This document shows positions 38,832 through 38,973 of a stretch of 64,000 nucleotides of DNA, piece by piece. The stretch comes from an uncultured Clostridia bacterium (lineage in GTDB: Bacteria > Bacillota > Clostridia > TANB77 > CAG-508), in contig CAKOYB010000006.1 of NCBI GenBank assembly GCA_934130435.1, forward strand, positions 3,392-67,391, in the 5' to 3' direction. Made by a program: the position numbers and the translations under genes. The number at the start of each line of letters is the position of its first letter. The stretch's first letter is position 1. The notes beneath the pieces are model-generated. The model made no database searches. It saw nothing but the letters and a program-made list of their open reading frames with translations, and was not told the origin of the DNA.

Positions 38832-38973
38832 TTATTGAGGGTTAGGATTTGCACCTAACATAGAGTACCAGCGTATACTCCTACGCCACTTCTGATAACG
38901 GTTACCACTGTATTTTATTCGATTCGGATATTTCTATCACACTTAGCGTCTACCTATTCCGCCACCTCAATAA
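38832..38973. ncRNA. tRNA-like structured element (about 140 nt) closed by a 9-bp perfect inverted repeat; not a canonical tRNA
   Basis: TTATTGAGG (38832-38840) pairs with CCTCAATAA (38965-38973). Minus-strand 5' part GAGGTGGCGGAATAGGTAGACGC closely resembles a type-II tRNA acceptor/D-arm. 3' part has T-arm-like GTTAGG-TGCAAAT-CCTAAC plus an acceptor-like strand. Central 60 nt contains a GATA-GAAA-TATC tetraloop hairpin. Confidence 0.3.

Follow-up and report, generated by a model that had tools for sequence, protein, structure and literature searches.

A tRNA-Leu-like RNA without an anticodon arm in a Clostridia phage head module belongs to a large phage RNA family

The stretch of DNA considered here, which we refer to as the window, comprises 64,000 nucleotides (nt) of contig CAKOYB010000006.1 from an uncultured Clostridia bacterium, and it includes a prophage head module in which a tRNA-like element lies on the minus strand. 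The element is flanked on one side by an open reading frame (ORF) of 73 amino acids (aa), located 3′ of a minor head protein gene, and on the other by the scaffold and major head genes, with the terminase and portal genes upstream (gene assignments from PHROGs). We find that it is an intact member of a large family of phage RNAs that keep the top half and the elbow of a tRNA-Leu and carry a variable insert in place of the anticodon arm. Its parts and the terminator that follows are given below in minus-strand order, with lengths of helices in base pairs (bp).

38833..38971, minus strand: whole tRNA-like RNA, 139 nt from position 1 to the discriminator A at 38833, as matched by the family model R1 (described below)
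38965..38971, minus strand: acceptor stem 5′ strand AUUGAGG, pairing with 38834-38840 (7 bp)
38946..38962, minus strand: D-arm of tRNA-Leu type, GCGG-AAUAGGUAGA-CGC, preceded by U8 and G9 at 38963-38964
38862..38945, minus strand: insert of 84 nt that replaces the anticodon arm and the variable arm and holds a GGUAAC hairpin
38863..38880, minus strand: hairpin GAGUAU-ACGCUG-GUACUC where a type-II tRNA has its variable arm, with a compensatory change in relatives
38841..38859, minus strand: T-arm with a 6-bp stem (G-UUAGG / CCUAA-C) and the loop UGCAAAU
38834..38840, minus strand: acceptor stem 3′ strand CCUCAAU, pairing with 38965-38971
38781..38813, minus strand: intrinsic terminator, an 11-bp stem (38788-38813) and then a U run, 19 nt past the RNA

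A tRNA fold without a decoding end

Read on the minus strand, the element runs AUUGAGG-UG-GCGGAAUAGGUAGACGC-(84-nt insert)-AUG-UUAGG-UGCAAAU-CCUAA-C-CCUCAAU-A, and its minimum-energy fold has a z-score of -2.33, with none of 200 shuffled sequences folding as well. The original prediction, made from the letters alone, described a perfect 9-bp inverted repeat closing the element, and this repeat (UUAUUGAGG/CCUCAAUAA) is found in the sequence as the 7-bp acceptor stem plus two outer pairs. The T-arm-like hairpin and the complementary acceptor strand that it placed at the 3′ end are likewise present (GUUAGG-UGCAAAU-CCUAAC, 38841-38859), and the likeness that it saw between the minus-strand 5′ end and the acceptor and D-arm of a type-II tRNA turns out, for the D-arm, to be an identity: the 5′ part GGTGGCGGAATAGGTAGACGC is the same as the D-arm region of the phage tRNA-Leu(UAA) genes at loci L007, L028 and L088. 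The core nucleotides of a tRNA are in place as well; U8, A14, A15 and G18G19 occur in the element and are nearly invariant across the family, and the set kept at the elbow and core comprises U8, A14, A15 with a U before the T stem, G18 G19, U54, C56 and A58. Departures from a standard tRNA lie in the T loop, which has G where tRNAs have U55 (UGC, not UUC), in the stack of acceptor and T stems, which measures 7+6 bp owing to an extra G-C pair compared with the 7+5 = 12 bp of a canonical tRNA, and at the 3′ end, where no CCA is encoded after the discriminator A (38833).

The middle of the element was predicted to be incapable of forming an anticodon arm, and this holds: an anticodon stem-loop with a 7-nt loop is absent from both the minimum-energy and the constrained folds, and the insert stands where such an arm would be. 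No ORF of at least 40 aa occurs in the element region on either strand. Neither ARAGORN nor Rfam 15, the latter at the gathering threshold and at E-values up to 10, places a tRNA or any known family over the element. The original prediction regarded the lack of a covariance-model hit as evidence against a structured RNA; such hits are indeed lacking for Rfam and ARAGORN, but a model built from the relatives of the element does match it, and the silence of the two tools is a gap in those libraries rather than the absence of a structured RNA.

Covariation and distribution of the family

Members were gathered using an exact-word scan of IMG/VR with the 21-nt D-arm together with a scan for the 3′ motif; those from cultured phages surfaced only with a chimeric query that joined the 5′ and 3′ consensus. 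At least about 180 distinct relatives were recovered in phage contigs and prophages, mostly of Bacillota, and they share an architecture of five variable nucleotides, an invariant block, a variable middle, the motif AUG-YRAGG-UGCAAAU-CCUYR-C-CC and the complement of the first five nucleotides. The 21-nt word is present at 120 or more IMG/VR loci; among the matches listed, four are real tRNA-Leu genes and at least about 105 loci have the architecture of the window element. Given that the collection relied on exact words and required six of the seven acceptor pairs, it imposes by itself the invariance of the blocks and some of the acceptor pairing; no such selection for pairing applied to the T and D stems. 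The window element conforms to the family at both ends: positions 38946-38971 are the exact consensus (an acceptor stem whose last pairs are G6 G7 : C C, followed by U8 G9 and the D-arm), and the AUG, the T stem of 5+1 bp and the acceptor 3′ strand at 38833-38861 match the 3′ profile.

Evidence for a conserved RNA structure comes from the pairing of the three stems. An alignment of 97 sequences has 98.4% of cells paired, with changes on both sides in 12 of the 16 pairs; none of 500 shuffles reached any of the observed pairing measures, and sliding the partner columns lowered pairing to 32-48% of cells. Across 181 distinct sequences, acceptor pairs 1-5 take all four Watson-Crick types while G6 G7 : C C stays fixed, T-stem pairs 3-5 covary, and the D stem changes from C-G to U-A in nine members and from G-C to A-U in two. 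The sixth T-stem pair is G-C in 163 of the 181, A-U in three and G-U in another three. G-U pairs outnumber A-C mismatches in the same set (53 versus 18), consistent with an RNA that is read from this strand. The T loop is nearly invariant. The discriminator is not conserved (A in 37, U in 31, G in 15 and C in 14 of the 97 sequences), and no member encodes CCA.

We then relied on a covariance model, R1, which was constructed from 97 relatives that include neither the window element nor any of its close kin. R1 matches the element over model positions 1-118 of 118 with 81.8 bits (E = 3.4e-20), and this is its only match in the window. Members score 41-90 bits, compared with about 37 bits for genuine tRNA-Leu genes, and the family has a signature with no counterpart in real tRNA-Leu: the UGC loop, the sixth T-stem pair and the AUG before the T stem.

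These results bear on the possibility that the element is a dead tRNA-Leu gene split by an insertion, or else an intron-containing or permuted decoder of CGG codons with a CCG anticodon, and leave it highly improbable. The 21-nt D-arm block identical to that of real phage tRNA-Leu genes speaks for such an origin, as does the heptamer AUCCGAA, which resembles an anticodon loop and had been proposed as one. The heptamer is unpaired, however, and lies in a freely varying part of the insert where the supposed A37 is a G in relatives (UCCGAG); a suggested second copy of the D-arm overlaps the GAGUAU/GUACUC hairpin and loses its stem in relatives (CGC to CAC). Removing the insert as an intron or permutation leaves only 55 nt (26 from the 5′ side and 29 from the 3′ side) with no anticodon arm, and neither ARAGORN nor Rfam calls a tRNA. 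Decay is further contradicted by the same covarying architecture, with its own signature absent from tRNA-Leu, in at least about 180 distinct sequences. The supposed link to abnormal CGG decoding likewise finds no support; CGG is merely rare in a window of 27.6% G+C (4 of 17,651 codons, compared with 475 for AGA, counted in mechanically called ORFs of at least 120 aa, some of them overlapping). The original prediction thus stands in its tRNA-like RNA on the minus strand and in listing a regulatory RNA among its options, and falls in its proposals of decay, of an intron or permutation, and of CCG/CGG decoding. Because conservation falls exactly on the nucleotides that form the core and elbow of a tRNA and its inner acceptor/T helix, with the decoding end dispensable, the element is not a decoder, an intron-split or permuted tRNA, or a decayed gene.

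The family is widespread. A scan for the 3′ block in one genome per bacterial species returned 108 DNA stretches, 91 of which have a matching 5′ half; their hosts are mostly Bacillota (Lachnospiraceae, Oscillospiraceae and other Clostridia, Paenibacillus, Bacillus and Leuconostoc), along with a few Bacteroidales and Fusobacterium metagenome-assembled genomes. Members in GenBank phage records include Leuconostoc phages Ln-9 and LN34, Enterococcus EFDG1-like phages, Lactobacillus phages phiJL-1, LP65 and LpeD, Listeria phages LP-101, LP-114 and PSA, and B. subtilis phage SBSphiJ6. None of these records annotates an RNA at the site, and four of the hits are overlapped by features labeled as hypothetical proteins or ORFs. 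Neither the whole element (blastn) nor the 13-kb head module (megablast) gave a match when queried against the INPHARED phages. We found no description of the family in the full-text literature (subscription journals not covered), among the 224 motifs of Weinberg 2017 or among the odd tRNAs of Mukai 2017, and it appears to be undescribed so far.

A mini element of about 60 nt was also seen between tRNA-Asn and tRNA-Tyr in Salmonella phage Felix O1 (NC_005282; locus L238, about 2970-3030). It has the acceptor-like stem AUUUAGG/CCUGAAU and the T-arm UAAGG-UGCAAGU-CCUUA and no Leu-type D-arm, and its 3′ motif recurs in about 100 Felixounavirus records. The mini element may represent a reduced and distantly related form of the family in phages of Gram-negative hosts.

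Inserts and genomic placement

The insert is the part of the RNA that differs most. Its length ranges from 6 to 280 nt, the smallest natural member (L040, 60 nt) having only a 6-nt linker in its place, and inserts cannot be aligned across the family. No group I or group II intron or known motif was matched by Rfam as an insert in the members of 37 scanned family loci. Closer to the window the picture changes: ten IMG/VR contigs carry the window insert at about 95% identity. Three close relatives (L230, L234 and L237, the L230 group) have the acceptor stem UAUAUAG/CUAUAUA rather than the AUUGAGG/CCUCAAU of the window, such that five of seven pairs differ yet all remain paired. Flanks and terminator sequence also differ in this group, which nevertheless still lies just before the scaffold and major capsid genes; a terminator follows the element in all close relatives, with another sequence in the L230 group. 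Within the insert, the GAGUAU/GUACUC hairpin shows one compensated change from A-U to G-C and one change from U-A to U-G in relatives, and the remainder is too conserved among them for a covariation test. Judging from this comparison, the insert is under selection, with about 95% identity kept between the window and the L230 group despite turnover of the acceptor stem, and with compensation in the hairpin.

Homology between the window and L230, L234 and L237 extends from U8 to the T stem, and acceptor stems and flanks are unrelated. On the alignments it looks as if a cassette of core plus insert had been swapped by recombination within the conserved arms. Such exchange could be taken to mean that the 5′ and 3′ blocks are a DNA-level element, that is, a site for recombination, a homing endonuclease or packaging, in which RNA structure is incidental; frequent HNH endonuclease genes nearby and several siphophage copies close to genome ends would fit as well. 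We nevertheless consider a DNA site very unlikely: compensatory changes hold three helices paired, the excess of G-U over A-C is strand-specific, the arrangement resembles that of tRNA genes, and a DNA site would have no need of the nucleotides that make tertiary contacts in tRNA.

Some members carry further insertions at the elbow. Ten have one in the D loop between G18 and G19 (L121, L133, L136, L159, L164, L179, L195, L199, L208 and L217); these follow AAUAG, often contain GGUAAA and end in a repeated AAUAG. In seven others (L041, L048, L049, L075, L085, L086 and L098) an insertion that starts with AC lies in the T loop between G55 and C56 (GGUG^...^CAAAUCC). Insertions of both kinds are structured, about 10-160 nt long and project from the elbow, and none matched an intron model.

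In their genomic placement members behave like tRNA genes. The L034 member (7203-7322) lies 8 nt 3′ of a tRNA-Gln and 10 nt 5′ of a tRNA-Glu, the SBSphiJ6 copy is inside a tRNA cluster, and those of L023, L045, L053 and L090 are also in tRNA arrays. Three tandem members, 5-6 nt apart and each with a different insert, occupy L090 11362-11737, and tandem members with unrelated inserts occur in L023 (12085-12387) and L049 (9579-9890) at spacings of about 18-40 nt. About one quarter of members are 1.4-1.9 kb upstream of the terminase large subunit gene on the same strand, where phage tRNA genes also sit; in the window this niche, occupied by many family members in other phages, is held by the sole tRNA of the 64 kb, a tRNA-Thr(UGU) just upstream of the terminase region (45284-45358, minus strand, 61 bits). 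A conserved protein partner was not found: considering the nearest ORFs and an all-versus-all clustering of the 1,743 ORFs that lie no farther than 5 kb from 182 members, no protein family occurs in more than about 10% of loci except the terminase large subunit (about 44 loci when four clusters are summed), and this recurrence reflects position rather than partnership.

Several observations were made beside particular members. The 22-gene phage tRNA array of L034 also contains a ROOL RNA (4042-4646, 387 bits), and the insert of the L090 copy at 11630-11737 has two extra canonical T-arm hairpins (GGGGUUCGACUCCCC and CGGGUUCGACUCCCG). Listeria phage PSA (L239, NC_003291) has three RNA elements in one intergenic leader (2253-2698) before the HNH endonuclease gene ORF54, in the order rli62 (Rfam, 100 bits), a family member (59.9 bits; record 36665-36754) and the mcrA RNA motif (73 bits). 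A Paenibacillus profundus prophage (L157) has an epsC/EAR processive-antitermination RNA (6306-6424, 52 bits) directly upstream of its member (6551-6672); the pair is near an HNH endonuclease gene belonging to the cluster found about 1.6 kb downstream of family members. In the window itself, the 5′ leader of the GP20-like scaffold gene (38705-38771, minus strand) has a weak match to the GP20-b RNA motif (15.4 bits), which is below the gathering score of 36.2 although the context is as expected.

Members are mostly co-oriented with the nearest ORF, both upstream (136 of 162, 84%) and downstream (118 of 164, 72%), and many fill tight gaps between genes, beginning 0-20 nt past the stop codon of the preceding gene and leaving 20-40 nt to the start codon of the following one. 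A terminator occurs within 100 nt downstream of 46 of 178 members, compared with 16 of 176 upstream controls, and no clear peak was seen for a -10 promoter box at a fixed distance upstream. The shared orientation and the tight spacing are the basis of the main rival to the explanation that we favor below, namely that the fold is a cis-acting signal for processing or stabilization, serving only to have RNase P and RNase Z cut a polycistronic transcript or to cap the 3′ end of an upstream mRNA, with a released RNA that does nothing. The tight intergenic placement, the shared orientation and the position of the window copy between the minor head and scaffold genes and directly before a terminator all agree with such a role, and a tRNA lacking its anticodon would make a harmless processing signal. 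Yet within a lineage the long, structured inserts are kept against a background of changing flanks and acceptor stems; tandem arrays of two or three members with different inserts are hard to explain as cutting marks, as are copies inside tRNA arrays in which real tRNAs already supply cleavage sites; and the UGC loop and almost invariant D-arm go beyond what processing enzymes need. We therefore regard a purely cis-acting role as rather unlikely, if a serious contender.

Possible function and relation to known tRNA-like RNAs

The explanation toward which we lean, with some reservation, is that the element is a stable, excised, tRNA-shaped noncoding RNA (ncRNA) of a tRNA-Leu-derived phage family, probably matured by the tRNA enzymes of the host and kept off the ribosome, with the insert as its functional part. 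The covariation of the stems, the placement like that of tRNA genes, the selection on the insert and the excess of terminators downstream of members speak for it. Transcription from the minus strand would proceed with the terminase-portal-minor head transcript, or at its end, and would stop at the terminator at 38788-38813. Judging from the fold and from the tRNA-like spacing in arrays, RNase P would cut the 5′ end; RNase Z or exonucleases would trim past the discriminator, possibly followed by addition of CCA. The product would not decode, as suggested by the missing anticodon, the UGC T loop and the mostly A/U pairs 49-65, 50-64 and 51-63, which across the family are most commonly U49-A65, A50-U64 and A51-U63. 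Staphylococcal non-proteogenic tRNAGly, which binds EF-Tu poorly, has a UGC or UGU T loop and weak T-stem pairs, two features that are read as holding it apart from EF-Tu and the ribosome (PMC7826273). Because the T loop and T-stem pairs of the family match those of this tRNA, the RNA looks shaped to be taken for a tRNA by processing enzymes and passed over in translation. More speculatively, the tRNA core would be a scaffold for processing and stability and the variable insert an effector acting in trans on a host or phage factor, perhaps as a regulator, or by drawing off a tRNA-binding enzyme or a defense protein as a decoy or sponge would.

This explanation must be held cautiously, as several observations weigh against it. 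With no encoded CCA and an unconserved discriminator, no specific chemistry of the 3′ end can be inferred; the acceptor and T stems stack into 13 bp, one more than the 12 bp by which RNase P and RNase Z gauge a tRNA; and the hairpins inserted in the D loop (about ten members) and the T loop (seven) would cover the face of the elbow that is read by RNase P and other elbow readers. An antisense search within the window yielded only chance matches of 9-14 nt, and no target or partner was found for the insert. The near-invariance of the 21-nt D-arm is, moreover, partly an artefact of exact-word collection.

One may also postulate that the RNA is a tRNA mimic that receives CCA and is aminoacylated, in the case of the window copy by leucyl-tRNA synthetase (LeuRS), and that it donates or sequesters an amino acid or a synthetase outside translation, on the model of cell-wall tRNAGly or of the tRNA-like domain of tmRNA (transfer-messenger RNA). 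E. coli LeuRS reads the discriminator A, A14, A15/U48 and the G18G19 core rather than the anticodon, and the window copy has all of these; the UGC T loop and weak T stem, in addition, match those of charged tRNAs that avoid EF-Tu (PMC7826273). A discriminator that is not conserved and acceptor positions 1-5 that vary freely mean, however, that members have no common identity set. Pair 3 is U-A in the element and the G3:U70 pair is rare (6 of 181 members), and CCA is not encoded. We consider charging of this kind improbable.

Comparison with known systems places the family near several of them. With type-II tRNA-Leu it shares the 7-bp acceptor stem, U8, an identical D-arm GGCGGAAUAGGUAGACGC with G18G19, the T-arm nucleotides U54, C56, A58 and G53-C61, a hairpin where the long variable arm would be, and a location in tRNA arrays and before terminase genes; it differs in lacking an anticodon arm, in having UGC rather than UUC and an extra G-C pair, in its unconserved discriminator, and in that ARAGORN and the Rfam tRNA model RF00005 do not call the element. 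The staphylococcal cell-wall tRNAGly is alike in its UGC/UGU T loop (without pseudouridine 55) and weak A/U pairs at 49-65, 50-64 and 51-63, but it is a complete, chargeable tRNA with an anticodon and a dedicated transferase, whereas the family has neither an identity set nor a conserved protein neighbor. In tmRNA, too, the paired ends form an acceptor stem beside a T-arm, and the place of the anticodon arm is taken by a large domain unrelated to tRNA. Further features of tmRNA are a G3:U70 alanine identity, a reading frame for the tag, pseudoknots and the lack of a true D stem; the family has a full D-arm and rarely G3:U70, the element has no ORF, and an ARAGORN tmRNA search made no call on the element or on the family loci that were run.

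In the bacterial Y RNA YrlA, which also occurs in phages, the ends of the RNA form a stem that binds Ro60, the tRNA-like module is at the far end and the gene lies beside rsr. It is nonetheless an ncRNA that mimics a D-arm, T-arm and acceptor and is handled by tRNA enzymes (PMC4201824). Unlike in YrlA, the ends of the element are the acceptor stem, and its neighbors are head genes with no Ro60 gene nearby. The small stable RNAs of the T4 tRNA cluster (species 1 and 2, rnaC/rnaD) are phage ncRNAs amid tRNA genes with which they are probably co-processed. ROOL RNAs are likewise phage-encoded and sited among tRNA genes (PMC5737381). The family resembles T4 species 1 and 2, ROOL and GOLLD in being a phage ncRNA among tRNA genes and probably co-processed with them, but it has no likeness to them in sequence or structure, and ROOL and GOLLD are about 500-800 nt long and not tRNA-shaped. 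Lastly, in the engineered "tRNA scaffold" a payload replaces the anticodon arm and the chimera is processed and stabilized by the tRNA machinery; this is a laboratory design of which the family would be the natural counterpart, with a putative payload role for the insert. Laboratory design aside, the element fails defining features of each of these closest known systems.

A broader hypothesis, which we offer tentatively and regard as possible though doubtful, is that phages of Bacillota, and perhaps Felix O1-like phages in reduced form, carry a hitherto unrecognized class of natural tRNA-scaffold RNAs. In these, a core derived from tRNA-Leu would let the tRNA machinery of the host excise and stabilize the RNA, and interchangeable structured payloads in place of the anticodon arm, and sometimes at the D or T loop, would act in trans as decoys or regulators, for instance against tRNA-directed defenses, while the arms would double as recombination handles for swapping cassettes. 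Phage tRNA genes counter defenses that cleave tRNAs, and a mimic with no anticodon and with swappable domains is for this reason a candidate for an anti-defense or regulatory role.

The interest of the element is as a representative of a widespread class of phage RNAs and not as a broken tRNA tied to CGG decoding. The family exposes a blind spot of tRNA finders and Rfam and is present, unannotated, in laboratory phages open to direct tests (Listeria PSA, B. subtilis SBSphiJ, Enterococcus EFDG1-like phages and dairy phages of Lactobacillus and Leuconostoc). It would account for the "empty" intergenic gaps that recur in phage tRNA clusters and in the leaders of late operons, and it provides RNA engineering with a natural form of its tRNA scaffold. 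If indeed undescribed, it adds a common and strongly supported structured RNA to the known tRNA mimics, which include tmRNA, Y RNAs and viral tRNA-like structures.
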